Below are positions 42,169-61,913 of a stretch of 64,000 nucleotides of DNA, in pieces (position 1 is the stretch's first letter; each line of letters begins with the position of its first letter). Source of the DNA: Acidobacteriota bacterium. Lineage in GTDB: Bacteria > Acidobacteriota > CAIWXX01. Location of the stretch: the NCBI GenBank assembly GCA_040755995.1, contig JBFMAF010000013.1, forward strand, positions 69,123 to 133,122, written 5' to 3'. Made by a program: the position numbers and the translations under genes. The notes beneath the pieces are model-generated. The model had not been told where the DNA came from and ran no database searches. It saw nothing but the letters and a program-made list of their open reading frames with translations.

Positions 42169-42248
42169 GTCTCTCCTCCCGCGTGAACCCCAAAAGAGGC
42201 GAATACATAGCACAGCGCCGCTTGCACGGTCAAACTCGGCGATCGATC

Positions 42249-42356
42249 CGGGTTGCTCTGGCCCGGGCTCTTCTTCTCAGTGCAGAGGTGCTCGTCCTTG
42301 ACGAAGCGAGGACGGATGTGGACAGCCGCACAGAGGAGGCGATGATGGCCGGTATC
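42249..42356 (+). pseudogene. 36-codon relic of an ABC-ATPase Walker B region; inverted, diverged copy of 44423-44530
   Basis: RVALARALLLSAEVLVLDEARTDVDSRTEEAMMAGI versus RVALARALLLDAEVLVLDEATNDVDSRTEEAMMAGI; 12 synonymous and 3 nonsynonymous codon differences by manual comparison. Confidence 0.85.
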
Positions 42357-43103: not shown

Positions 43104-43140
43104 TTGACCCGGGCCACGACGTGACCTATAATGTGTCACG
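43104..43140 (+). promoter_or_regulatory. sigma70 promoter and inverted-repeat operator of the second TA module
   Basis: TTGACC (43104-43109), 17 bp, TATAAT (43127-43132); CGTGAC-N9-GTCACG palindrome straddles the -10. Confidence 0.75.
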
Positions 43141-43151
43141 GAGAATGGCAC

Positions 43152-43646
43152 ATGGTGGAAATATCGACTCGAGAGCTCAAGGCCAACCTGGCGAAATATC
43201 TGAAGTTGGTAATGCGGGGAAGGCGCGTGCGTGTGCTGAATCACGGGCACGCCGTCGCCGATATCGTTCCATCATCAAAGACCACTCCGACCGTGAGATT
43301 CTACGCGGTCACCAACGGTGTTGTCGAGGAATCGACAATACACAGCACGGAAGTTGACTGGCACAACGTGCTGCTCATTCAAGCAGTGTCTGAGACGGAA
43401 GCTCTCAAGATCGAACGGGATTTCGGCGAAGGAAAGATCCGACCAGCCGAACGGTACTGCCGCCGGTGCTTGACGACGCATCGCTTTCTGACGAGGCAAG
43501 CGCAGCCCACCACTTCTTCGATACAGATGGTCGGGGGAACCAGGATCACGCTATCTAACAAACGGTTCCAACTCCCGGATCCTGTGACGCCGAGAGGGGA
43601 TGGCCCTACAGCGGCGCGGATGATAGTTGAGGGCCGGAGCAGATGA
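43152..43646 (+). CDS. Phd/YefM-family antitoxin, unusually long with an inserted segment
   Basis: ISTRELKANLAKYL..V..G..V.V.NHG.AVA.IVP at the N-terminus; ends MIVEGRSR with an ATGA overlap to the toxin; 164 aa. Confidence 0.8.
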   Translation: MVEISTRELKANLAKYLKLVMRGRRVRVLNHGHAVADIVPSSKTTPTVRFYAVTNGVVEESTIHSTEVDWHNVLLIQAVSETEALKIERDFGEGKIRPAERYCRRCLTTHRFLTRQAQPTTSSIQMVGGTRITLSNKRFQLPDPVTPRGDGPTAARMIVEGRSR

Positions 43647-44110
43647 ACCTCTACCTGGACAGTTCGGCGTTCGTGAAACTCTTCCTCACCGAGGAGTTCT
43701 CGGAGGAGGTACGGGAGGCCACTGTGCAAGCGACTCGCCTCTGCACATCACGTCTGGCCTGGCCTGAAACGGTGTCGGCATTCGCGCGCATGTGTCGTGA
43801 AGACAGAATCACTCAGTATGAGTTCTTTCGGCTCATGGACTGCCTGGGCAGCCGCTGGCAGGAGATCAACGCTGTGGTTGAGGTTGACGCTAATCTCCTG
43901 AGTGACACACCGCTCCTGATGCTGGCGCACCCGCTGAGGGCCCACGACGCCATCCATCTGGCGAGCGCGAAAGCATTCGCAAAGATCGTGGATGATGATC
44001 TGCGCTTCGCAGCTTACGACGAGGCTCTGGCCAGAGCAGCACATGCGTCCGGGTTCGACGTGCTATCCGATCCAAGATGGAAACTGTTTGGGGGAACTCA
44101 CTCGGTTTAG
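43643..44110 (+). CDS. vapC: PIN-domain (VapC-family) toxin
   Basis: LYLDSSAFVKL, WPETVSA, LRAHDAIHLASA, AYDEALARAA. Confidence 0.9.
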   Translation: MNLYLDSSAFVKLFLTEEFSEEVREATVQATRLCTSRLAWPETVSAFARMCREDRITQYEFFRLMDCLGSRWQEINAVVEVDANLLSDTPLLMLAHPLRAHDAIHLASAKAFAKIVDDDLRFAAYDEALARAAHASGFDVLSDPRWKLFGGTHSV

Positions 44111-44167: not shown

Positions 44168-46072
44168 TCAGGGAGAATCGCCGATCGGACCGGTTGTCTG
44201 CCGGGGCAGGACGCCTTGCCCGTGGACGCCCGCGCCCCGGAGCTCCTCGTATTGCTGTGCCACGAAAAGGCGCCGGTAAAGGCCGTCCCGGGTCATCAAC
44301 TCTTCATGCGTTCCATCCTCGACCAATCGCCCGCGGTCGAGCACGTAGATCCGATCGGCCTGGGTCACCATCGAGAGGCGATGCGCGATTATCAGAAGGG
44401 TCCGGCCACGACAATACTCCGCGATTCCAGCCATCATCGCCTCCTCGGTCCTGCTGTCCACGTCGTTTGTGGCCTCGTCAAGTACGAGCACCTCTGCATC
44501 GAGAAGAAGAGCGCGGGCAAGAGCTACACGGCGGCGCTGACCCGCAGATAGGCGAGTCCCCCGATCCTGCAAAACAGTCGAATAGCTGTCCGGCATCGCG
44601 GCGATGAAATCGTGAGCTTGCGCCAGCCGGCATGCCGCAATGACCTGGCTGTCTGTTGCATCCGCACGAGCGAAACGCAGGTTCTCCATCGCGGTCGCAT
44701 GAAACAAGAAGACGTCCTGGGTCACCACGGCCACCCGCCTTCGCCAGCTCGTGATCTCCAGCTGACGAAGGTCGATGCCGTCCACTTGAATCATCCCATC
44801 CGTCGGATCATAGAGGCGCGAGACGAGATTCACCAAGGTTGACTTGCCCGCACCCGATGGACCAACCACGGCGACCCGGTGCCCACGCGGTATGGTGAAG
44901 TCGAGACGATCGAGGACGAGCGGCTCGTCGCGCGCATATCGAAACGACACCCCCAGGAATCTCACCGAGTCGCAAAGCGAATCGAAGACGATCGATCCGC
45001 CGCTCGGCGCCACCGGGCTCGTCGTGCCGATGGTCTCCGTCAGGGTATGCAGCATCGGAGCGACCTGGGCAACCTGCGTGTGCAGGCTGGTCAGGATTCC
45101 GGCCGGCCCCATCAACCGAATTGCGATGACCAGGAAGATCCCCAAGAGGGCGGGGACTGTGTGTGTCGATAGGGGAAGGAACAAAGACCCCACGGCCAGG
45201 ACAGCGGCAAGAAGAGAGAGATTCAGCGCGTTGAAGAGCGGGCGCGCGAAACCGCCGATGGCCGAGGCGCGGTATTCCTGCGCAAGAAGCGCCTGACTAT
45301 GCTGCGCGAACGTGGCATGGCTCCAGTTCTCTCGGCCGAAGACGCGCACGAGCTTCATCCCGGCCAACAGCTCTTGAACCGCAGCCTGTGTCTCGCGAAT
45401 GTTGTCATGGAGCTTCCTGCTGGCCTTCCGCAGGCGCACCGCTATCGCGGGGCGCAGCAGGAAGCTCACGGGGGCAAGCAGCAACAAGCTGAGGATCGTC
45501 AGGCGCCACGACAGAGCCAGCGCGAGCACCACATAGCTCACCATCACCGCGATACTCGCGGCCGCCTGCCCGGCCTGGAGAACCAAGGCCCCGACGCTGC
45601 GGACGAATGAGTCGAGCAACGCCGTCAGGCTCCCGCGGCGCTCGCGCAGAAAGGCATCGAGCGGCATTTCGGAAAAACGGCGGAAGACGGCCTCCTGCAG
45701 CGTGCGCTGGACGTGCTTTCGCAATTGAAGCGACGCCATGGTCTGTGCCAATTGCAAGGAGGCCCTGAAAAGCGCGAACAAAATCAAGGCGGCGGCCGCC
45801 AGTCGGATTCGTGACCCAACCGGCAGGCTCGATGCATGCCGGGCGATCTCCGTCAGCCAGGTCCCTTCCGGCACCGCGGCATCCCGCCCGGCGGCCAGGA
45901 GAATGAACACGCTGCCGATCCCGATTGCTTCGCCAGCCACCTGAAGGGCAGCCGTGACCACGAGCAGCGCGAGCAGGCCGCGATGGGGCTGCATGAGTGC
46001 AAGCAGTTGAACCAGACACCTGGTGGATGATGGTCGAGCGTCAGGCGATGCAGAGAGCTGTTCGTTAGTCAT
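44168..46072 (-). CDS. ABC exporter, fused permease and ATPase (MsbA-like)
   Basis: Transmembrane domain, GPSGAGKST, LSAGQ, VLVLDEAT, IAHRLS. Start uncertain. Confidence 0.9.
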   Translation of the reverse strand: MTNEQLSASPDARPSSTRCLVQLLALMQPHRGLLALLVVTAALQVAGEAIGIGSVFILLAAGRDAAVPEGTWLTEIARHASSLPVGSRIRLAAAALILFALFRASLQLAQTMASLQLRKHVQRTLQEAVFRRFSEMPLDAFLRERRGSLTALLDSFVRSVGALVLQAGQAAASIAVMVSYVVLALALSWRLTILSLLLLAPVSFLLRPAIAVRLRKASRKLHDNIRETQAAVQELLAGMKLVRVFGRENWSHATFAQHSQALLAQEYRASAIGGFARPLFNALNLSLLAAVLAVGSLFLPLSTHTVPALLGIFLVIAIRLMGPAGILTSLHTQVAQVAPMLHTLTETIGTTSPVAPSGGSIVFDSLCDSVRFLGVSFRYARDEPLVLDRLDFTIPRGHRVAVVGPSGAGKSTLVNLVSRLYDPTDGMIQVDGIDLRQLEITSWRRRVAVVTQDVFLFHATAMENLRFARADATDSQVIAACRLAQAHDFIAAMPDSYSTVLQDRGTRLSAGQRRRVALARALLLDAEVLVLDEATNDVDSRTEEAMMAGIAEYCRGRTLLIIAHRLSMVTQADRIYVLDRGRLVEDGTHEELMTRDGLYRRLFVAQQYEELRGAGVHGQGVLPRQTTGPIGDSP

Positions 46073-46278
46073 TGATGAATGGGGACGAACCAATGTTGAG
46101 GGGCTCGGCGCAATCACGCCTCGTCGCAACCCTGTGCCCTTCGGTCCGGAACATGAGCGGCCTCTGCATGGCGTGACTATATTCAGGCGGGCTTCCTCTC
46201 GCAAGACACGCGCTCACTTCACGAAATCAGTCAAACGGAGGGATGCAAAATGCGCGAACATGCCCTAGGATATCCGTC

Positions 46279-49191
46279 ATGGACCACCGGGCGGAAGGCG
46301 TGACCGATTCGGTTGTGGGTCAAGGCCCGGCGGGGACGCTCACCGCCGCATTCCAAGCTCAGGCGGCACGGAAGCCGCGGGCCGTTGCGGTTGACTGCGA
46401 TGGCATCAGGCTGACTTATGGAGAGCTCGATTCCATCTCGAACGCATTGGCCGCCGCCATCGCAGAGCGGCACGGGATTTCAAATGCTCCGATTGCTCTC
46501 CTATGTCCTCATCGTCCGGATGCCGTCCTCGGAGTCCTGGCGATACTGAAGGCGGGGAAGTGCTTTGTCCCTCTGAACCCGGCGAGTCCAGCAGAGTATC
46601 TCAGGCGAATCTGGGTGCATTCGGGCGCATCGGCTATCCTGGCCGGCGCCGGGGAATCCTCGCTCGTCCGGGAAGTCTGCGGGACCATGGACCTATGTAT
46701 CCCGCTGGAGTCTCTTGCCTCATCGCGCTATGCCGCGCCGCCGCCTCTCGATCCGGATCCCGAGCGACTTGCGGCGATCGTGTACACCTCGGGCTCGACG
46801 GGAGAGCCCAAAGGAGTAATGACAACGCACCGGAGCATCTTGATGCGAGTGCAGCATCACGCCCGGGTCGCAGCGTACGGCTCATCGGATCGCCAGGCAT
46901 CGATTGTCTACTGGGGCTACAGCGCGTCCTTCCCTGATATCTTCGGAGCTTTGCTGCATGGCATAACGCTGCTGCCTTTCGACACGGCAGCGAGAGGTAT
47001 TGGCGGATTCATTAGTTGGCTGGAAGAGCAGAATGCTACTCTACTGCAGCTCCCGGCTGCCCTCGTTGCCGGAATTCTGGACACGGTGGTTGCCCGGAAG
47101 CGCCGCCTTCGCCGTATGCGACTGGTATACGTGAGCGGCGGCCGGCTGTACCGTTCGGAGGCTCTCGGGCTGTGGAGGGTCTTTCCGCGGGCGCGCCTGC
47201 TGCATGGATATGGCTCATCCGAGGCCAACCTTGTGGCGCAGCACGGCATGCAACCCGGCCAGGCCCCCGTCGGCGATCCGCTGCCAGTAGGCAGCGTCGT
47301 GACGGGAAAGCGGGTGATGGTCGTCGACATTTTCGGCGAAACCGTTCCCGACGGGGTGATCGGCGAATTGGTGGTGGTGAGTGACCACTTGTCGCCGGGC
47401 TACTGGCGCGATCCAGCAGCGACCGAGTCATCGTTTCGCGCGACGTCTGCCGGGCAGCAGCCGTTCTTCCACACCGGGGACCTGGGCTGCTATCGGCCGG
47501 ACGGGCTGTTGGAACTGGCGGGTCGCAAGGACTTCGTTGTCAAGATCCGGGGGAATCGGGTGGATACAGAGGACGTTGAGGCGCGTCTCAAGGCATCGAG
47601 GCGGGTCAGGGAGGCCGCGGTCGTCGTTCATCGCAGGAAGTCGGGCGAAGCCGTTCTGATTGCCTACATAGTGCCGAGGCCAGGGGCAGAGGTGGCGCCG
47701 AAGGACCTCCGTGAGGAGATGGAGAAGACTTCGCCGCCGTACATGGTGCCGAGCCGGCTCATCGTCATGGACGCTCTTCCGTTGACCGCGAGCGGCAAGG
47801 TGGACCGTCGCGCTCTGCCGCCTCCCTACAAGGTGCGTCCCTCAATCCGTGTGCAGTTCCGACCGCCCGAGAACGAGGGGCAGAAACTGGTCTGCCGGGT
47901 GTGGGCCGATCTTCTTGAAGTGCCGGAAGTGGGATTGGACGACGACTTCTTCGACTTGGGCGGCGATTCCCTCAGTGCCATGATGATGCTGGCACAGGTG
48001 GAGCACCTCCTGGAGACGCATGTGCCTCTTGCATTCTTCGAGACCCCGACGGTGTCGGGTCTCTTCGCCATCATACGCTCCGATCGGTCGTCAGAATCCC
48101 CGCCGCGCCCCGCGGAGTCACAGCCTGGAAGCACAGCCTTCGAGCACCCAGCAAGGGATTGGCAACACACGTTTCGAGGCGCCAGGGACTGGCTGCATGC
48201 CTTCGCCGGGAGGCCGGACAGGGTCGCAAGGCTCATGGAGCTCGCGCCGTCATTCGCCGCGATGCTGATGCCGTATAGGGCCGGCTGCCGGTGGCTTGCC
48301 TGGTGCTGTTCTCACGACGGTTTCGTCGAACGCACATACGGCAGCGACTACCACCTCTTCCGCCGCTTTCTGTCCGATTTCGGCTGCAGCATCTCGGACC
48401 CACTGGCCGCCTTCCGGGTCAGTCTCTTGGGAAATCTCGCAATGCTTTCGACGTTCCAGCGACTGCATATTCCGGCGGAGTTGTCGGGCCGGCTCCTGGA
48501 GGTGCTCAAGGCCTCGCCGTTGCCGTTTCGCCGCTCGGCCGGAAGGTTGATTGAGCAAGGGGATCGGGACGAGCTTCGAAAGTGGTTTCAGTTTTCCGGG
48601 CTGCAGTCTGTCGAGGAGATGCTGGCGTTGAGGCACGGAGTGATCCTGCTCTCTTATCACGGCACGGGACAGATCCTGGCATCGAGGGCGCTGCAGCGCT
48701 TTCTCGACGACAGCCCGATCAAGTTCCTCAGCCGCTACGCCAGTCGCAAGCGGGCGCAGCTGCGAATCGGGAATGGCGGCTCAGCGAAGACGGCCGCGGA
48801 AGTAATCAGAGACACAGTCGCCGCACAGCGACACCTGGAGAGGGGAGGGCTGGTGCAGATCGTGCTCGAGAGTTCTCCGAGTCGCAGCGCCATCGCATGT
48901 TCTGTTGGTGGGCGGCTCTATCATCTCGAGCCGGGCTTCGCCCATTTGTCTCTTTCAACTGGAGCAGCGATCATTCCCTGGCACGCCTATTATGACGACC
49001 GCGGCTGCGTTCAGGCGCGATTCCAGCCCCGGCTCACAGTAGAAATCGACACCGACCACGAAGCCCAGGCCGCCGCCCTGACACGAAGGTACGCCCTGCT
49101 CTTGGAGTCGACCTGGCGCGAGGTGCCCCAGTCCATGGATTGGCGACTCATCGACACCCATTATTCGTTGCCGAGGGCCGATCCTCCTTAG
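46279..49191 (+). CDS. NRPS-like protein: adenylation domain, carrier domain, C-terminal lipid A acyltransferase-like (LPLAT/LABLAT) domain
   Basis: YTSGSTGEPKG, YGSSE, FHTGDL, SGKVDR; FFDLGGDSL. C-terminal GLQSVEE...GVILLSYH...LERGGLVQIVLE...PGFAHLSLSTGAAIIP...PQSMDW resembles the LpxL family. Start is between 46243 and 46300. Confidence 0.8.
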   Translation: MDHRAEGVTDSVVGQGPAGTLTAAFQAQAARKPRAVAVDCDGIRLTYGELDSISNALAAAIAERHGISNAPIALLCPHRPDAVLGVLAILKAGKCFVPLNPASPAEYLRRIWVHSGASAILAGAGESSLVREVCGTMDLCIPLESLASSRYAAPPPLDPDPERLAAIVYTSGSTGEPKGVMTTHRSILMRVQHHARVAAYGSSDRQASIVYWGYSASFPDIFGALLHGITLLPFDTAARGIGGFISWLEEQNATLLQLPAALVAGILDTVVARKRRLRRMRLVYVSGGRLYRSEALGLWRVFPRARLLHGYGSSEANLVAQHGMQPGQAPVGDPLPVGSVVTGKRVMVVDIFGETVPDGVIGELVVVSDHLSPGYWRDPAATESSFRATSAGQQPFFHTGDLGCYRPDGLLELAGRKDFVVKIRGNRVDTEDVEARLKASRRVREAAVVVHRRKSGEAVLIAYIVPRPGAEVAPKDLREEMEKTSPPYMVPSRLIVMDALPLTASGKVDRRALPPPYKVRPSIRVQFRPPENEGQKLVCRVWADLLEVPEVGLDDDFFDLGGDSLSAMMMLAQVEHLLETHVPLAFFETPTVSGLFAIIRSDRSSESPPRPAESQPGSTAFEHPARDWQHTFRGARDWLHAFAGRPDRVARLMELAPSFAAMLMPYRAGCRWLAWCCSHDGFVERTYGSDYHLFRRFLSDFGCSISDPLAAFRVSLLGNLAMLSTFQRLHIPAELSGRLLEVLKASPLPFRRSAGRLIEQGDRDELRKWFQFSGLQSVEEMLALRHGVILLSYHGTGQILASRALQRFLDDSPIKFLSRYASRKRAQLRIGNGGSAKTAAEVIRDTVAAQRHLERGGLVQIVLESSPSRSAIACSVGGRLYHLEPGFAHLSLSTGAAIIPWHAYYDDRGCVQARFQPRLTVEIDTDHEAQAAALTRRYALLLESTWREVPQSMDWRLIDTHYSLPRADPP

Positions 49192-49337
49192 ATTGTCGCG
49201 GTGCCGGCATTGAGGTGCGTGGGAGAGTCCCCGGACGACGAATTGACACGATAACGCATTAAGAGGTAATTGTTGACGTCGATCCTGTTTCGGCAGTGGG
49301 GACAACTCGGGGAGGCATTTTGCAGGCAGGTGGTCTC

Positions 49338-51050
49338 ATGTCGGGTACGAATGAACCGCAGGTCAGCCCCTTCTTGATCGGACTCGCCGTCGGCGAAGGC
49401 ACCGGGCCGGAGCTGGCCTTGGTCTTCCGTCGTGCCGTCGAGGTACTGGCCGCAGCGTTCGGAATCGATGCGAAGATCATCGCTTGCCCGCAGCGCCTTC
49501 GCACCTTTGGGGCCTTGATGAAGCGGGGGCTGCCGACATCCGAGGTGGTACTGATCAAGGACGAGGACTGCATACGATACGAGGGATTCCTGCGGGATGT
49601 CTACGGCGAGGGTTGCCGGGTCGTGTTCCGCACCGCGATCAATGCAGAGAGCCTGTATCAGGTCAGGGAGCGGCTGCGCGGGGTGAAGATGGAGGTGATC
49701 CCGACACCGTACGGCGAGCTGTTTCTCGTTCGCGATGCGGCCCAGGGATTCTATACGGGCAGCAATGACACCGGTGATCGCAACATCATCCGGCGGACGT
49801 GCGAGTTCCGCCGTGACTGGACCGAACAACTGCTCGACTACGCGCATGCCGCCGCGGCCGCGCACTGGGGCGGCCCGCAAGGGATCGATCACTTTCTGCT
49901 CGCCTATAAGTTCCACCTGCTTGACAACCGGTTTGCGCAATGGGTCGACGAGTATTCCCGCTCGCGCAACCTCACGCTGGAGTTGTTTCAGCCCGACACG
50001 ATGAATCGCCATCTCTTGCGCGGGACCTACCACGGGCGCCTGCTCATCGTCGGCGCCAACGAGTGGCTCGATATCGCGCACCTGGACCTGCTGGCTCGCT
50101 ACGGCATGGGGCCGCAGGAGAATCGCCACAGCCGCAACGTGTACCTTGCGCGCGGCGTCGAAGGGCTGGTCGAGTACCAGACCGTGCACGGTTCTGCAGA
50201 CGACATCGCCGGCCGGGGCCTCGTGAACCCGGTCGCGACTTTGCGTGCGGCCGCCGACCTGTTCGAACACCACGGCCGCTGCGCCGGAGCCGTCGTCCGC
50301 ATGCACAGGGCGATCGAACGCAGTCGCGCGCGCGGACTGGCCACGCCCGACCTTGGCGGCCACAGCACCACCGATGACTTTGCGGCGGACATACTCGACT
50401 GCTTTCGCAGCAGCTCGCAGCCGCCGCCGGCAAGGGATACGGCGCTGCTCGTCGTGGACATGCAGAACGACCTGTGCGCACCCGGCGGGTGTTTCGACCG
50501 CCTGGGTCTGATCGACTGCGGCGCGATGCAGGCGCTCGCGAGCCGCATCGCGGAGCTGATCGAGTGGAGCCGGCGGCATGGCCTCGATGTCATTTTCACC
50601 CGCATGCTCGCCGATCCTGAACGGCAGCCGGAGAACATGGTCGAACGCAATCGGCGCCTGGGGCGGATTGACTACCTGCGCGAGGGCCATTGGGGCGCGG
50701 ATTTCTTCGGAGTCTCGCCGATGCCCGGCGAGCCGGTCGTGACGAAATTCTGCTACGACGCGTTTCTCGGCACCGAGCTTGAGCGCCGGCTGCACAGCCA
50801 TGGAGTGCAACGCCTGCTGTTCGGAGGCGTCTTCACCGACGTTTGTGTCGATGCCACGGCGCGCACTGCCTTTCAGCTTGGATTCCGAATCGCGATCGTG
50901 CGCGACGCAACCGCGCCGCTGCACTATTCTCTAGATCAGACGCTGGCATTCATGGAACAGATCTACGGCGCGCAATCGTTGGCCTTCGCCGAGCTGCCGG
51001 ACCTATTGCGTACGAACGGAGCAGCGTGCACCCGGGCTGGCGCGACATAG
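49338..51050 (+). CDS. fusion of an isocitrate/isopropylmalate-dehydrogenase-like domain and an isochorismatase-family cysteine hydrolase
   Basis: GEGTGPE, VRD..QGFY, HGSADDIAG..VNP.ATL, TPDLGG; then LLVVDMQND, TKFCYDAF, TDVCVDATAR (D-K-C triad). Confidence 0.82.
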   Translation: MSGTNEPQVSPFLIGLAVGEGTGPELALVFRRAVEVLAAAFGIDAKIIACPQRLRTFGALMKRGLPTSEVVLIKDEDCIRYEGFLRDVYGEGCRVVFRTAINAESLYQVRERLRGVKMEVIPTPYGELFLVRDAAQGFYTGSNDTGDRNIIRRTCEFRRDWTEQLLDYAHAAAAAHWGGPQGIDHFLLAYKFHLLDNRFAQWVDEYSRSRNLTLELFQPDTMNRHLLRGTYHGRLLIVGANEWLDIAHLDLLARYGMGPQENRHSRNVYLARGVEGLVEYQTVHGSADDIAGRGLVNPVATLRAAADLFEHHGRCAGAVVRMHRAIERSRARGLATPDLGGHSTTDDFAADILDCFRSSSQPPPARDTALLVVDMQNDLCAPGGCFDRLGLIDCGAMQALASRIAELIEWSRRHGLDVIFTRMLADPERQPENMVERNRRLGRIDYLREGHWGADFFGVSPMPGEPVVTKFCYDAFLGTELERRLHSHGVQRLLFGGVFTDVCVDATARTAFQLGFRIAIVRDATAPLHYSLDQTLAFMEQIYGAQSLAFAELPDLLRTNGAACTRAGAT

Positions 51051-51057
51051 TGCCAAG

Positions 51058-53697
51058 ATGCCGCCGTTTCCGAAGATCGACGCGTCATGCCAGCCGCCGA
51101 TTCCACGCTCGGCCGTCGATCGTACGATCGGCGCGGCCTTCGCCGAGTCTGCTGCTCATGCCGGCGACAGCCCGGCGGTCAAGATGGGGGAGAAGGCCCT
51201 CAGCTACGGCGAACTCGACTGTCTCTCGAACCGGCTTGCTCACGCCCTGAGCCAGTTCTCCGAAGGCATTCAACAGCGTGTGGCGCTGTTGATCGAAGAC
51301 CGCATACAGCAGGTCCTCGCCATGCTCGGCGTCCTGAAGGCCGGACATCTTTTCGTGCCGCTCGCGACTACCGACCCTCCAGCGCGGCTGGCGTCGCTGA
51401 TTACAGATGCGCAGCCCGCATGCGTGATCACGGATGCGGGCGGGGCCGAGATCGCAAGGCAGGCCGCGCAGTCGCTGCCGCGTCTGGAGCTCGGGGCGCT
51501 CGATTCGACGCCGGTAGAATTTCTGTCGCCGGTTGAACTGACCCCCTCGGCCTGCGCCTGTCTCATCTACACATCGGGCTCCACCGGCCGTCCCAAGGGA
51601 GTGCTTCAGACGCATCGCAACATCCTGCACCACGTCGCGAAGTACACACGCACAATCGGCCTGACTCGCGCCGACCGGCTCACCTGGCTCACGAGCTACG
51701 TGTTCGCCGCATCCATATCCGACGTGTTTCCCACCCTGCTCAACGGCGCCACGTTGTTGCCGTACGCGATCGAGCGGAGGGGCTTTGCTGAGCTCGGTTC
51801 CTGGCTGCGCGCGGAACGCGTGACGATCTACTACTCGGTGCCCTCAGTGCTCCGGCGACTGGCGGCACAAGAGCGCGACGACACGAGATTCTCTGAGGTG
51901 CGCCTGGTGCGCCTCGGCGGTGAGTCGCTGCGCGCAACTGACGTCGAGATCTTTCGGCGGCTGTTCGGACGGCGTTGCCGGATGCTCAATTCACTCGGCG
52001 CGACTGAAATCAACCTGATCCGCCATTTCTTCGTGGACGCTGACACCCCGCTCACTGATGCTACCGTGCCCGCGGGCTATGAGGTCGAGGACACCGAGGT
52101 ACGGCTGATCGATGAGCAGGGACGGGACGTCTCGCCAGGTTGTATCGGCCAGATCGCCGTTCGCAGCCGATACTTGAGCCCCGGTTACTGGCGCCAACCC
52201 GAGCTGACGCAAGCCACGTTCCTGGCGGATGCCGGGGACCCGGAGCTTCGTACATATCTTACCGGGGATCTCGGCCGCATGCTGCCGGACGGCTGTCTGG
52301 TTCACCTCGGGCGCATCGATCGACGGGTCAAGGTGCATGGACGCAGCGTGGATCTGCAGGAGGTCGAAACAGCCATCGCACGCCTCGACCTGCTCGAGGA
52401 CGTGGCGGTGGTCGACGTGAGCGGGGCGGGGGATGACGATGGGGTGATGCTTGTGGCCTACCTGGTCGGCCGCGGTGCGACGCGCCGCGATTCCGCCGCA
52501 CTGCGCGCGCAGCTCGCCAGAACGCTGCCCGCGCACATGATGCCCCTGCGCTTCATCTACGTCGATACGCTGCCGCTGACCAGTACCGGCAAGATCGATC
52601 GGCAGGAGCTGCGGAGACGCGCGATCGAGCAGCCGGTGTCGCGGGCGGGAGCGCAAGCGCCCCCGCGTGACGCGACAGAGAGCGCCCTGGTCCAGCTGTG
52701 GGAGGGATTGCTCAAGGTGCGCCAGATCGGCATCACCGACAACTTCTTCGATCTCGGCGGCGACTCGCTGCTCGCCCTGAGGATGCTCGATGAGGCGCAG
52801 CGCCTGTTCGGTCGCGCAGTATCGCCGAATGAGTTCCAGAAAGCGCCGACTATACGGGGACTTACCGACATCGGTCGCCGGGCTCAGCCGGCCTGCGCGG
52901 CAGCGGTGATCGTGGCAGTCAAGGCGGCGGGCACGCGTGCCCCATTGCTGCTCGTTCCAGGAGCCGGTTCGGACGTGCTCGCACTTTCAAATCTCTGCCG
53001 GCACATCGATGAGGCGCAGCCGCTGTACGGGCTGCGCATGCCCGGCCTGGTTGAGGGCGAGAAGCCGCTCGATCGGGTCGAGGCAATCGCGGCATACATC
53101 GTGACGGCGCTGCACCGTGAAGGTGCCATCCGGCGTTTCAAGGTCGGCGGGGTGTCGTTCGGCGGGCTGGTGGCGCTTGAGATCGCGCAGCAGCTCCAGA
53201 TCTCCGGCGAACCGGTGGATCACGTCTACCTGCTGGACACCGCCGCACCGCGGTATCCCCGGCGCCGGTGGATCGCCGGATTTCGCCACCCAATCCGGCT
53301 TGTTCAAAGCCTGATCCTGCCGCCCGGCGCCCGAGACCTCTTCACCCGGGAGAGACTTGAGCTCGGATGGAGAGACAGGCGGTCGCGCCTCCAGGCTCGG
53401 CTCGCTGCAATCAGGCAGAGCTGTGGAGGCCGCCGGATGTCGGCGCTCGACCGGCGAATGCTGCTGCAGGCCTCGTGCTTCCGAGCGGCCGACTGCTATC
53501 GGCCCTCTCGATACGACGGCGCCGTGACGCTGCTGCGGGCCGATCGCCAGCCTCCGCCGGACCAGTACGATTCTGACGAGCGACTGGGATGGGGAGATCG
53601 TCTCCCACGTCTCCGAGTGGTTGCAACGCCTGGCGGACACAACGATCAGTGGCAGGGCATCGCGGTCCCGGCCGTGGCGGCGGTATTGTCGGAATAG
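51058..53697 (+). CDS. NRPS-like A-T-TE protein
   Basis: YTSGSTGRPKG, SLGATE, YLTGDL, TGKIDR; FFDLGGDSL; thioesterase GVSFGG...LLD...PGGH. Confidence 0.88.
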   Translation: MPPFPKIDASCQPPIPRSAVDRTIGAAFAESAAHAGDSPAVKMGEKALSYGELDCLSNRLAHALSQFSEGIQQRVALLIEDRIQQVLAMLGVLKAGHLFVPLATTDPPARLASLITDAQPACVITDAGGAEIARQAAQSLPRLELGALDSTPVEFLSPVELTPSACACLIYTSGSTGRPKGVLQTHRNILHHVAKYTRTIGLTRADRLTWLTSYVFAASISDVFPTLLNGATLLPYAIERRGFAELGSWLRAERVTIYYSVPSVLRRLAAQERDDTRFSEVRLVRLGGESLRATDVEIFRRLFGRRCRMLNSLGATEINLIRHFFVDADTPLTDATVPAGYEVEDTEVRLIDEQGRDVSPGCIGQIAVRSRYLSPGYWRQPELTQATFLADAGDPELRTYLTGDLGRMLPDGCLVHLGRIDRRVKVHGRSVDLQEVETAIARLDLLEDVAVVDVSGAGDDDGVMLVAYLVGRGATRRDSAALRAQLARTLPAHMMPLRFIYVDTLPLTSTGKIDRQELRRRAIEQPVSRAGAQAPPRDATESALVQLWEGLLKVRQIGITDNFFDLGGDSLLALRMLDEAQRLFGRAVSPNEFQKAPTIRGLTDIGRRAQPACAAAVIVAVKAAGTRAPLLLVPGAGSDVLALSNLCRHIDEAQPLYGLRMPGLVEGEKPLDRVEAIAAYIVTALHREGAIRRFKVGGVSFGGLVALEIAQQLQISGEPVDHVYLLDTAAPRYPRRRWIAGFRHPIRLVQSLILPPGARDLFTRERLELGWRDRRSRLQARLAAIRQSCGGRRMSALDRRMLLQASCFRAADCYRPSRYDGAVTLLRADRQPPPDQYDSDERLGWGDRLPRLRVVATPGGHNDQWQGIAVPAVAAVLSE

Positions 53698-53761
53698 AAT
53701 GCGCGGGCGGACCTGTCCGTGATGGTTTGCGTCTCCCCGCGTGGTTTGGTAGCCTTCGGCC

Positions 53762-54496
53762 ATGCTCGTGACCCCGCTGCGCCAGATCGAGATAGCGATT
53801 CTGGCGATCTGGGCGGTCGTGCTTGTCGCGGCGTTCGCATTCGGGCAGCTCAGCGCCGATCACACGCGACATTCGATCCGGCCGCTGCTGATGGTGACCT
53901 CGGCTCTGCTGGTCCTGCTTGCGCTGCTCTGGTGGCTCGCGCCGGTCTCCGGCGCGCGTTCCGTGCCACAGAGCGTCTCTCTGCTGATTTTCCTGGGGAT
54001 GCTCTTCGGCTTCCTGGGCGATCTCATCATGGCCGACATACTGCGGACTCCCGACCGCGTCATCTTCGGAATCGGCTCGTTCGGCATCGGTCACGGGTGT
54101 TACATCGCTGCGTTTCTGCTGGCGTTGCGCGCGATTCATGCTCAAAGCGGGCGAGTCAATTGGATCGTCATGGCGTCTCTGGTGCTCCTGGGCATCGTGT
54201 TGTGGACCGGCCTGGTGAGGAACCCGGACAAGCCCCTGCCGCTCAACCTGGCGGCACTCGTCTATACGCTGCTCATCTGCATCATGGTTGCCTTTGCGAT
54301 CTCGCTGGCACTCGCGGTGCCACGGCTCTGGTACCTCGCGCTGGGCGCACTGCTGTTTCTGGCTTCAGACGCTATCCTGGGGAATCAGATCTTCAGGGAC
54401 CATCAGTGGTTCCTGGTCAGCGACGTCGTCTGGGTGACCTACATCGTCGGCCAGCTTCTGATCGTCCGATCGAATGCAGTATTGAAGTGTTTGTAG
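53762..54496 (+). CDS. YhhN/TMEM86 (lysoplasmalogenase-like) membrane protein
   Basis: About 8 TM segments; LGDLIM, FGIGHGCYIAAF, GALLFLASD, WVTYIVGQ. Confidence 0.78.
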   Translation: MLVTPLRQIEIAILAIWAVVLVAAFAFGQLSADHTRHSIRPLLMVTSALLVLLALLWWLAPVSGARSVPQSVSLLIFLGMLFGFLGDLIMADILRTPDRVIFGIGSFGIGHGCYIAAFLLALRAIHAQSGRVNWIVMASLVLLGIVLWTGLVRNPDKPLPLNLAALVYTLLICIMVAFAISLALAVPRLWYLALGALLFLASDAILGNQIFRDHQWFLVSDVVWVTYIVGQLLIVRSNAVLKCL

Positions 54497-57811: not shown

Positions 57812-57903
57812 CTGACGCCCGATCCTTGTTCGAACGATACCGTTGAGGTATCGTGTCGATTGGTCAGCGCCTCCGCGCGACCTCAGGAGGTTCTCGGAGA
57901 ATC

Positions 57904-59568
57904 ATGACGCGGCCCAACGGGTATCCTATCGTTCTCTCAGCCCCTTTGACCGAAATCGTAGACAACCCGGGCTTCTTCATTCAGATGGGACTGGCGTCCC
58001 TGCCCGGCTGGATGGAATGGGCCATCACGAGGACCTATCCCCGCTGGCGAGAGGTTCCCGTGGAGCCTGGCGGCACCGCGGGCGTCGCCCCGTGCGGCTT
58101 GCGAACGCTCGAGAACGTGCTCGGGAAGACGTTCGGTACTGATAACGTGGCCGTGTGCTATCCGGATGGGCTCGGTGCTTTCATCGGACCGGATACGCGC
58201 GTCGTCGCAATCTCGACGCACAATCCTCTCGGAACAACATTTGCGGCCGGCGTCTACGCCTCGATCTTCGGCTCGAGCAAAGATCCTATCAACGCCGTCT
58301 ACGCGCGGCGAATGTTTGAGAACGTGAAGGCAAGCCCCCATCGGGAGAGCTTCAGAGTCATCGTGGGGGGCTCGGGCGCGTGGCAAATCCAGGAGACGAG
58401 CTCGCTCGATGATCTTGGTGTCGACTGTGTCGTGGAGGGACGCTCCGAATCGCCGGAGGTGCTCGACGTCTTCAGGAAGGCCCTCGCGGGAGAGCCCATC
58501 CCGCGCGAGATCCGTGGGACCCACCCAATAGATCCTGATGCAATTGCGGTTCCGGTCAAGCGCACGACGTTCGGCGTCATCGAGATGACGACGGGTTGCG
58601 GCCGGCGCTGCGCGTTTTGCGCACCCGACAACAGCCCTCGAATCGACGTCCCCAAAGAAAAGATCATGGCGGCGGTGAAGGCAAACGTCGAGGCGGGCAA
58701 TGACCAGATTTCGCTCGCTACCGAAGACATGTTCATCTGGGGATCGGGCCGTGCTTGCTTTGTTCCGAATCGCGAGGCGCTCATCGACATCCATTCGTCG
58801 ATTGCGGGCTACCCGGGCGTGCGCCACGTTCTGCTCTCGCACGGGACAATGGCGCCGGTGGTTGTCGACCCGGCGCTCATTCGAGAGCTTTCGGACATCC
58901 TTCTGGACAAGAGTCCCCTGGAGCTTCCGCAGGTTTCGACTCACCCTAGGGGGCGGGTCTTGAGCCCGCTCATCGGTATCGAAACCGGCTCGCCCCGGCT
59001 CGCGAAGAAGCTAATGCCGGGGAAGGCACTTCCCTTCGACATCTCGGAGTGGCCGAGCGTCGTCATCGAGGGGCTCACGATCCTGAACAGGAACAACTGG
59101 ATCCCGGTCATGACGCTCATCGTGGGCTCACCGGAGGAGACCGGCGAGGACATCGAGGCCACGCTCGATCTTCTGTACGAGATGGAGCGGCGGAGCCTCA
59201 AGGCGCTTCTCGTGCCGTCGATCTTCACGCCGCTCCGCGACACTCGCATGCGGAACAGGCGCGGGATTACGCGCACCAGGGGGATTTCGCAGCTCCAGTG
59301 GCAGCTCATCATGAAGTCGTGGCAGATGAGTGCGCGCATCGGGCTACAGACCGGGTGGGTTCGTACGGCGTGGCCCCTGGGCTCCTACCTCTTCTGGGCC
59401 CTCCAAGGCAGACGCGCCAACGGACCGAACTTCACCTGGCCCCTCTTCCTCTTTGCCGGTTTTCCAGAAGCCCTGCTCAGGAAACTCGGCGGGCTCTATC
59501 GCGGAGTCCCGCTACAGCTCAAGCACCGCGACGAGCTCTTCGCGACGGGCAATCACACGATGCGGTAG
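57904..59568 (+). CDS. radical SAM protein with putative N-terminal B12-binding-like domain
   Basis: EMTTGCGRRCAFC (CxxxCxxC), IVGGSGAW, IGIETGS, TLIVGSPEET. Confidence 0.82.
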   Translation: MTRPNGYPIVLSAPLTEIVDNPGFFIQMGLASLPGWMEWAITRTYPRWREVPVEPGGTAGVAPCGLRTLENVLGKTFGTDNVAVCYPDGLGAFIGPDTRVVAISTHNPLGTTFAAGVYASIFGSSKDPINAVYARRMFENVKASPHRESFRVIVGGSGAWQIQETSSLDDLGVDCVVEGRSESPEVLDVFRKALAGEPIPREIRGTHPIDPDAIAVPVKRTTFGVIEMTTGCGRRCAFCAPDNSPRIDVPKEKIMAAVKANVEAGNDQISLATEDMFIWGSGRACFVPNREALIDIHSSIAGYPGVRHVLLSHGTMAPVVVDPALIRELSDILLDKSPLELPQVSTHPRGRVLSPLIGIETGSPRLAKKLMPGKALPFDISEWPSVVIEGLTILNRNNWIPVMTLIVGSPEETGEDIEATLDLLYEMERRSLKALLVPSIFTPLRDTRMRNRRGITRTRGISQLQWQLIMKSWQMSARIGLQTGWVRTAWPLGSYLFWALQGRRANGPNFTWPLFLFAGFPEALLRKLGGLYRGVPLQLKHRDELFATGNHTMR

Positions 59569-60515: not shown

Positions 60516-61913
60516 CTAGGGTATCACAGGTCTCCCCATTGCCGCCGTCTCGTTGCTGTTTCTGTAGGCACGCACTCGCTCGTCCAACTCGGTGCACCAT
60601 CGACTGATCCACCTCCTCGGCAGATGCAGGTATCGGGGCATGTATGAGGGGCGAAGATAGAAGCGGGCATACGCGGCGCCGAGGAGATACGTGAGCTCGT
60701 TTGCGCTGAGCTTCTCGAGCCCGTACGTAGGATGATAGCCGTCGAACTTCTCCCAATCAGTCTCGGTGATGAGATGCTCGCATCTCTTCCATAGGGGAGT
60801 GCCCGGGTAGGGGGTGAGAATCTTGAATTGGGCGAACGTGGGTGCGATGTCCATGGCGTACTTGATTGTTGCACCAATCGAATCCCAGTCGTCTTCGGGG
60901 AATCCGAGCAGAAACTGACCCGCGGTCGCGATCCCCATGCGATAGCATTCGGAAAGGAGATGCCGCTGGTGACTAACGTCAATCGGCCGTCTCCCGGCCT
61001 TTTTCAGGACGGCATCCGAGGCCGACTCGCCTCCAAACGTCAACATCCTGAGTCCGGCACGGTGCATGAGCCGGAGGAGCTCGACGTCGAGGCGATCCAG
61101 GCGGGTCTCGCATTCGAAGCGAATCCTGAGTCCTCCAGACAGTATGCGCTCGCATATCTCCGCTGCCCACTCGCGCCGGGCGGTGAACTGGGGGTCCCTG
61201 AATGCGACGAACGGCCGTTGGTAGAATCGAAACAGGTGCGACAGCTCATCGACGACGTTTGACACGGTGCGCGCGCGGTAGCCGGCGAGCACGCGATGGG
61301 GACAATAGACGCAGTGCTCGGGACAGCTTCGGCTGGCAAGTACCGGCACACCTCCACCTATCGGCTTATGATGGAAGGGGAAATGAAATCGCTGTGCGTG
61401 CCCATTTCCTGCGATGTCCCAACGTGGGAAGGGGAGCGAGTCCAGGTCGTCGATCGACGCGCTCTCGCAGATTCCGGAAAGCTCGGCGCCGCAGGCCGCA
61501 CTGCGTATGGCCCTCTCGGGCTCACCTCTGACCAGAAAATCCGCGTGCTCACGGAAGAGCTCGGGGAGGAAGGAGGCAGCAAGGCCGACGAAACCTACGC
61601 GCAGTCCCTTCCTCCTGGCCGCGTCCGCCCAGGCACATTCGTTGCGGGAGTCCACGATGGATGAGAGCACGATCGCAACATCGCCTTCAGGAACGCCGTC
61701 GCGCGTGAAGAGGACCTCGTGTCCCTTCTCGGCCAGGATTGCCGCCAGGTAGGCCAGCTGAATGCTCGGGATATCATGGAACAGCTTCTTGAAGTGGGAG
61801 TAGAGCCTGGTCGTGATCGAGAATGGCACCATTCTCGATCCGTACCCGCCGACAACGGTGTCCTTGGCGACAAGGCCGCGCGTACCGCGGAGATCAGCGA
61901 GCACGTACCTCAT
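60516..61913 (-). CDS. B12-binding-domain-type radical SAM protein
   Basis: GEPE, DLDSLPFPRWD, ASRSCPEHCVYC, CETRLD, FGGESAS, FLLGFP, TPYPGT. Confidence 0.85.
   Translation of the reverse strand: MRYVLADLRGTRGLVAKDTVVGGYGSRMVPFSITTRLYSHFKKLFHDIPSIQLAYLAAILAEKGHEVLFTRDGVPEGDVAIVLSSIVDSRNECAWADAARRKGLRVGFVGLAASFLPELFREHADFLVRGEPERAIRSAACGAELSGICESASIDDLDSLPFPRWDIAGNGHAQRFHFPFHHKPIGGGVPVLASRSCPEHCVYCPHRVLAGYRARTVSNVVDELSHLFRFYQRPFVAFRDPQFTARREWAAEICERILSGGLRIRFECETRLDRLDVELLRLMHRAGLRMLTFGGESASDAVLKKAGRRPIDVSHQRHLLSECYRMGIATAGQFLLGFPEDDWDSIGATIKYAMDIAPTFAQFKILTPYPGTPLWKRCEHLITETDWEKFDGYHPTYGLEKLSANELTYLLGAAYARFYLRPSYMPRYLHLPRRWISRWCTELDERVRAYRNSNETAAMGRPVIP

Follow-up and report, generated by a model that had tools for sequence, protein, structure and literature searches.

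Organization of the locus

The window analysed here is a stretch of 64,000 nucleotides from an Acidobacteriota bacterium (assembly GCA_040755995.1, contig JBFMAF010000013.1, positions 69,123 to 133,122). Between window positions 44168 and 53697 it holds four genes that bring together two proteins with adenylation (A) and phosphopantetheine carrier (T) domains, a dehydrogenase-amidohydrolase fusion and an ATP-binding cassette (ABC) exporter. This cassette is real and uncharacterised, and its best reading, to which we give a probability of roughly 0.45, is a single pathway of carrier-dependent envelope acylation, in a new form. It is made up of two modules: the exporter and an A-T-acyltransferase (module 1), and the dehydrogenase-amidohydrolase fusion and an A-T protein that ends in a thioesterase (A-T-TE; module 2). 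The features are laid out as follows.

44168..46072, minus strand: ABC exporter, HepA/MsbA-like, six transmembrane segments and a nucleotide-binding domain (Pfam ABC_membrane and ABC_tran); open reading frame (ORF) open to TTG at 46204
46243..49191, plus strand: A-T-LPLAT acyltransferase fusion, 982 aa (Pfam AMP-binding, PP-binding and Lip_A_acyltrans, PF03279)
49192..49337, plus strand: intergenic gap of 146 bp with a perfect TTGACA at 49243; inversion breakpoint relative to a second genome, G002
49338..51050 (ORF from 49296), plus strand: dehydrogenase of the isocitrate/isopropylmalate dehydrogenase (IDH/IPMDH) family fused to a cysteine amidohydrolase, 570 aa (Pfam Iso_dh and Isochorismatase)
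residues 1-360 of that fusion: dehydrogenase domain, with a remodelled active site
51058..53697, plus strand: A-T-TE, 879 aa (Pfam AMP-binding, PP-binding and Thioesterase)
53762..54496, plus strand: YhhN membrane hydrolase, a real gene outside the conserved cassette (Pfam YhhN)

Pfam searches bear out the domain calls that a preliminary description of this DNA had made for all five protein-coding genes. As that description also stated, no condensation or ketosynthase domain is reported by Pfam in the cassette proteins, and no phosphopantetheinyl transferase (PPTase) was found among the window proteins scanned. The exporter it called MsbA-like is indeed an ABC exporter, but the best NCBIfam model is HepA (374 bits against a cut-off of 725) and MsbA comes second (330 against 602), both far below the equivalog cut-off. 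The exporter probably starts at the ATG at 46072, because its orthologue in G002, a genome of another genus in the same family, aligns from residue 41. An inverted copy of part of the exporter (109 nt of 44423-44531, 83%) lies at window 42248-42356; it is 81% similar to the G002 exporter and looks like the remnant of an older exporter copy or of a rearrangement.

The genome that carries the cassette (7.7 Mb, 99.8% complete) has a GC content of 0.63, which the cassette matches. It encodes one PF01648 PPTase, on contig C21, and, besides the cassette gene, two further PF03279 genes; it also has a canonical lipid A acyltransferase along with genes for LPS export.

The A-T-acyltransferase and its adenylation pocket

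The A-T-acyltransferase has its carrier serine at Ser576 (GGDS, PF00550), and its C-terminal domain matches Lip_A_acyltrans above the cut-off (E 1.6e-6). Structure comparison assigns this domain, which had been termed acyltransferase-like, to the PatA/LpxM type, whose solved relatives act on lipids or glycolipids, and it can be regarded as a real acyltransferase of that type. The catalytic pair His806/Glu876 is kept. His806 lies within a conserved block and occurs in 130 of 131 sequences, and Glu876 aligns with the Glu of the PatA AERD motif, which would be Glu200. PatA, a mycobacterial phosphatidylinositol mannoside acyltransferase, acylates a mannose hydroxyl of its glycolipid through His126 and Glu200 (PMC8519569). 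The cassette domain shares with PatA and LpxM the fold and the His/Glu charge relay and scores closer to PatA than to LpxL models, at 17% identity to PatA and with 27.8 bits against the NCBIfam equivalog cut-off of 209. Unlike PatA, which is free-standing and uses long-chain acyl-CoA (PMC8519569), it is fused to an A-T unit of its own.

The pocket of the A domain reads SAPQYSGLVK. It has Ser in the column of Asp235 (GrsA numbering), the amino-binding residue. LgrA and five of the six A domains found elsewhere in the same genome have Asp in this column; the A domain of the A-T-TE has Ala. Since both A domains of the cassette are without the amino-binding Asp, their substrates are probably not amino acids, in agreement with the non-amino-acid carboxylate that had been suggested.

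This feature also bears on the known system that the cassette most resembles in its domain logic. AlmG belongs to the lipid A acyltransferase superfamily, as does the cassette transferase with its catalytic His, and a carrier is likewise present; an A domain of the amino-acid type is not. In Vibrio cholerae, AlmE, AlmF and AlmG place an adenylation enzyme, a phosphopantetheine carrier and an acyltransferase in series without a condensation domain (PMC4278540). A fused version of AlmEFG, placing an amino acid on lipid A, would share this logic, and the LPS export genes and canonical lipid A acyltransferase of the genome would be compatible with it. Neither A domain, however, has the amino-binding Asp, the transferase lies closer to PatA than to LpxL, and its family is well represented in Chloroflexota, a phylum that is not known to have lipid A. 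Such a system is most improbable here. The cassette further differs from AlmEFG in that the three parts form one polypeptide, which is accompanied by a dedicated exporter and, with the A-T-TE, by a second module.

A remodelled dehydrogenase and a second A-T protein

The structural model of the fusion has a pLDDT of 92. By Foldseek, the dehydrogenase domain resembles IPMDH, homoisocitrate dehydrogenase and IDH3 about equally (17-22% identity), and all its NCBIfam scores fall far below the cut-off. With these enzymes and tartrate dehydrogenase it has in common the fold, the Arg, Tyr, Lys and two Asp of the active site, and the NAD-type HGSAxD motif: Arg132, Tyr139, Lys191, Asp220, Asp245 and the motif HGSADD keep the catalytic and NAD-type positions of Thermus thermophilus IPMDH. 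It departs from the family, to which it is about 20% identical, in being fused to a cysteine hydrolase and in the replacement of two residues. Of the residues typical of the decarboxylating enzymes, the third metal Asp is Val, Ala, Thr or Leu and Glu270 (T. thermophilus IPMDH numbering) is Gln in 57 of 57 sequences; His193 and Glu242 are new invariants. The hydrolase domain has the Asp-Lys-Cys triad of the biuret (BiuH) and ureidoacrylate (RutB) amidohydrolases, its best models and solved relatives, with Asp374 and Cys503 conserved in 57/57 and Lys470 in 55/57 relatives. It differs from both in its fusion to a dehydrogenase, and its NCBIfam scores stay far below the equivalog cut-offs (BiuH, 80.9 against 370 bits; RutB, 62.1 against 378). 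Judged by these residues, the fusion would be catalytically active with NAD, on an acid that resembles malate and bears an amide or ureido group.

In the A-T-TE, alignment places the carrier serine at Ser570 and shows an intact thioesterase triad (Ser700/Asp727/His861). Its pocket, AASYRGSLIK, has Ala in the Asp235 column, Tyr/His278 and Arg299. Among 120 relatives, judged by alignment only, position 278 is His in 62 and position 299 is Arg or Lys in 72, while position 235 is Asp in 23, mostly the weakest matches. Because the amino-binding Asp is missing and Arg299 is basic, the likely substrate of the A-T-TE is an acid that has a second anionic group but no amino group. Its layout, intact triad and non-amino acid substrate recall the non-reducing A-T-TE enzymes of nonribosomal peptide synthetase (NRPS) type, such as AcyN and the atromentin-type enzymes (quinone and furanone synthetases; PMC9047271). 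Unlike these, which condense aromatic 2-oxo acids (PMC9047271), the cassette A-T-TE has a pocket that reads from the alignment as polar and basic, unlike one for an aromatic 2-oxo acid, and it is paired with a dehydrogenase-amidohydrolase.

Relatives of the fusion are widespread. The search gave 400 matches, and the 120 listed come from many bacteria and from lichen fungi, either fused or as a dehydrogenase alone. The surroundings of the fusion and its relatives were surveyed in 79 loci, which fall into 50 groups at 85% identity; many contigs end too soon to show what lies next to them. In 10 of the 50 groups an A or TE domain occurs no more than 4.5 kb away, one of these being a distant acyl-CoA ligase. 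Eight groups have both domains and at least 1 kb of downstream sequence, and among them A-T(-TE) follows in six, the ligase in one and nothing in one. This count leaves out the EF-hand clade (seven groups) and the probably fungal clade, neither of which, like the distant clade, has an A/TE partner. Two groups have, along with the pair, a second IDH-like gene as well as a fusion of amidohydrolase and aldehyde dehydrogenase; the second IDH-like enzyme shows the same changes at Tyr-x-x-Arg, Lys and Gln.

Three clades stand apart in their surroundings. In lichen-forming and other fungi (P0053, P0055, P0056, P0064; L047, L048, L053) methyltransferases lie near the fusion in the loci seen. In the EF-hand clade, which is probably actinobacterial, an EF-hand gene lies directly upstream of the dehydrogenase and hydrolase with no A domain nearby (L038, L044, L045, L046, L049, L050, L052). 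The distant dehydrogenase clade (L059-L081) neighbours ABC importers of the branched-chain type and a large conserved protein, which has no Pfam or NCBIfam match (L081:1358-5098).

Conservation of the cassette

The orthologues in G002 are 79% (exporter), 70% (A-T-acyltransferase) and 72% (A-T-TE) identical, and the fusion orthologue, split over two contig ends, is 76% and 70% identical. DNA similarity to G002 spans 44243-53697 and stops at the A-T-TE stop codon. In G002 the block of exporter and A-T-acyltransferase is inverted relative to the pair of fusion and A-T-TE, so that the exporter there reads into the dehydrogenase. The flanking genes differ between the two genomes, and both modules are still adjacent. 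From these limits and the inversion, the conserved object is the pair of modules, and the gap at 49192-49337, the breakpoint of the inversion, is likely the junction between them. The fusion was found in two of 401 genomes of the phylum, the present one included; neither the dehydrogenase nor the acyltransferase profile found a match in a further genome of the same family (G001).

The preliminary description had suggested a synteny test for a five-gene set, in which four same-strand genes diverge from the exporter. Four genes do recur in G002, but the inversion there means that this arrangement is not a conserved layout, and YhhN falls away as a member. YhhN gave no tblastn match in any of 82 related loci and, with the window protein as query, was not found in G002 (98% complete). 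Since the similarity also ends before it, YhhN lies outside the conserved unit; it does occur in G001, a genome that yielded no cassette genes.

Relatives of module 1 and a possible glycan connection

The A-T-acyltransferase family is large and uncharacterised. With its acyltransferase profile, matches at E 1e-28 were obtained in 15 of 401 genomes from the class to which genome G766 belongs, and 14 Chloroflexota loci were inspected (12 from this class-wide search and two from another), with 78 of 124 candidate ORFs scanned, plus 18, plus 21. Seven of the 14 loci have an A domain of NRPS type, and in every one of these an NMT1/SsuA-type ABC importer lies upstream; in three of them a methyltransferase sits between importer and acyltransferase gene. 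In the remaining seven, the only A domain is a more distant one, in most cases resembling fatty-acyl ligases. The His278/Arg299 pocket typical of the A-T-TE family appears in three importer-linked acyltransferases. No match to the dehydrogenase or YhhN was found in 13 stretches around such loci, and none to the dehydrogenase profile in five importer-type genomes. Three importer queries and three sulfotransferase queries found nothing in the genome that holds the cassette. Two loci, L157 (G1322) and L166 (G1550), contain an O-methyltransferase and two A-T-acyltransferases each; the A domain is fatty-acyl-ligase-like in one of the two and of NRPS type in the other.

A glycosyl- or sulfotransferase lies within about 6.5 kb in 8 of the 14 loci, a frequency for which no background rate was computed. 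An ABC exporter stands directly behind the acyltransferase in two loci. The exporter of G1322 shares 52% identity with the window exporter, which is also its best match in the cassette genome (355 against 197 bits). The suggested tie of acyltransferase, glycan and exporter finds support in another phylum, where the family occurs near glycan genes and a related exporter.

Some neighbours raise another acceptor. In G1322, G1509 and G1524 the acyltransferase has Asn-synthase-like, HPr-kinase-like or NTP_transf_5 genes next to it, and the genome of the window has such a suite on contig C12 (G000:C12:362-15954, L169), where glycosyltransferases share the locus with PqqD, Asn-synthase-like, HPr-kinase-like, NTP_transf_5 and transglutaminase-like genes. 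The acceptor could accordingly be a peptide or glycopeptide of a lasso-like locus. This is very unlikely: the C12 locus is on another contig and rich in glycosyltransferases, and 11 of the 14 family loci have no such genes among the ORFs scanned. The C12 locus is a candidate source of the acceptor. It further holds Stealth and a fusion of GT2 and radical SAM domains.

A proposed pathway and its alternatives

From the domains, folds, catalytic residues, missing amino-binding Asp and gene linkage, all directly observed, we infer the reactions, the hand-over between the modules and the acceptor of a single acylation pathway, in which module 2 would take the place of an importer as supplier of an acid for acylating an exported glycan or glycolipid. 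The NAD-type dehydrogenase would oxidise a malate-like 2-hydroxy acid, whose amide or ureido group would be taken off by the cysteine hydrolase. Fusion and A-T-TE together would make a small non-amino acid, which the thioesterase may release in processed form as an ester, a dimer or a lactone-derived acid. The A-T-acyltransferase would load this acid on its own carrier as acyl donor, and its acyltransferase would pass the acyl unit to a hydroxyl on a sugar of a glycolipid or lipid-linked glycan, presumably assembled by glycosyltransferases whose genes lie in other parts of the genome. The acylated product would be flipped by the exporter, and the C21 PPTase would prime both carriers in trans. 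In the Chloroflexota relatives, the SsuA-type importer would occupy the supplier's place.

A single pathway is suggested because a second genus has kept the four genes side by side, with 70-79% identity, even though the modules are inverted there. Transfer to a sugar hydroxyl is proposed because fold and catalytic pair match PatA, and a glycan target because 8 of 14 loci have a glycosyl- or sulfotransferase and the G1322 locus has the 52% identical exporter. The exchange of suppliers is suggested by the importer that is present in 7/7 loci and not found in the cassette genome, by the importer-type genomes without a dehydrogenase match, and by the three importer-linked His278/Arg299 pockets.

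Several observations weigh against this pathway. The two A domains have different pockets and belong to different clades, contrary to the idea that both A-T proteins activate the same acid. Both modules were found joined only in two genera of one family. Of 50 locus groups, one has the acyltransferase domain close to the dehydrogenase, and a genome of unstated completeness (G401) has module 2 without an acyltransferase match. The inversion and the TTGACA 5' of the dehydrogenase suggest separate transcription of the modules, although the promoter scan did not call a full promoter at 49243. The modules might then be independent neighbours, with module 1 acylating a glycan with an acid from general metabolism and module 2 making a separate small metabolite. 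The occurrence of each module without the other, their relative inversion, the confinement of the join to one family and the differing pockets would all fit. The adjacency kept in two genera with differing flanks argues otherwise, as do G001, which matched neither module, and the importer of 7/7 comparable loci, not found in the cassette genome. We consider such independence unlikely.

The remaining points concern the acceptor. Six of the 14 Chloroflexota loci showed no glycan gene, eight glycosyltransferase queries found nothing on the 133-kb contig, and no glycosyltransferase was seen among 40 window proteins scanned. If no glycan is involved, the acyltransferase could replace a condensation domain and couple the acyl unit on its carrier with the A-T-TE product, at a hydroxyl or an amine, giving an exported small molecule. 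Glycan genes were likewise not found among the G002 flanking ORFs inspected, two different acids appear to be activated, and TauD, PhyH-like, P450 and Rieske oxygenases stand beside single module 2 loci or groups, as in metabolite clusters. However, the solved relatives of the acyltransferase fold act on lipids or glycolipids, and the closest distant relative of the exporter is in a glycan locus. A small-molecule product is accordingly judged slightly less likely still, and acylation of an exported glycan or glycolipid is preferred.

Flanking genes

Past YhhN, an LsrG/ABM gene and then an Fe-ADH gene extend the same-strand run (Pfam). A Phd/YefM antitoxin and PIN toxin pair with a lower third-position GC (GC3, 0.65-0.69) adjoins the exporter at window 43131-44110. 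Two radical SAM genes lie downstream (window 57853-59568 and 60516-61913), the first resembling B12-binding radical SAM models below the cut-off; no tie of these genes to the cassette was seen in G002. The genome also contains a large multi-module NRPS region (G000:C36, about 202900-249300).

Novelty and implications

The literature search, which covered published articles and not MIBiG, returned no description of either module and no characterised match, in keeping with the initial view that the gene combination belongs to no characterised pathway. Nothing like the cassette is described in the available parts of PMC10510592, PMC10079959 and PMC8905533.

A broader view can be offered more tentatively still, namely that the single-chain A-T-LPLAT family, with highly variable pockets, decorates surface glycans with unusual acids and that its supply modules are interchangeable, an SsuA-type importer in Chloroflexota and a two-gene biosynthetic module here. 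In this view the remodelled IDH-family enzyme, the amidohydrolase and the A-T-TE would produce a new acyl unit that passes to a lipid A-type acyltransferase with no condensation domain taking part. Both A domains and the dehydrogenase are soluble and so open to direct assay. If the proposed pathway is true, it would define a large family of self-loading glycan acyltransferases of variable specificity and would give a first role to a widespread, remodelled IDH/IPMDH branch of bacteria and lichen fungi. Carrier-dependent envelope modification, as in the Dlt and Alm systems, would then be widened from amino acids to custom-made organic acids.

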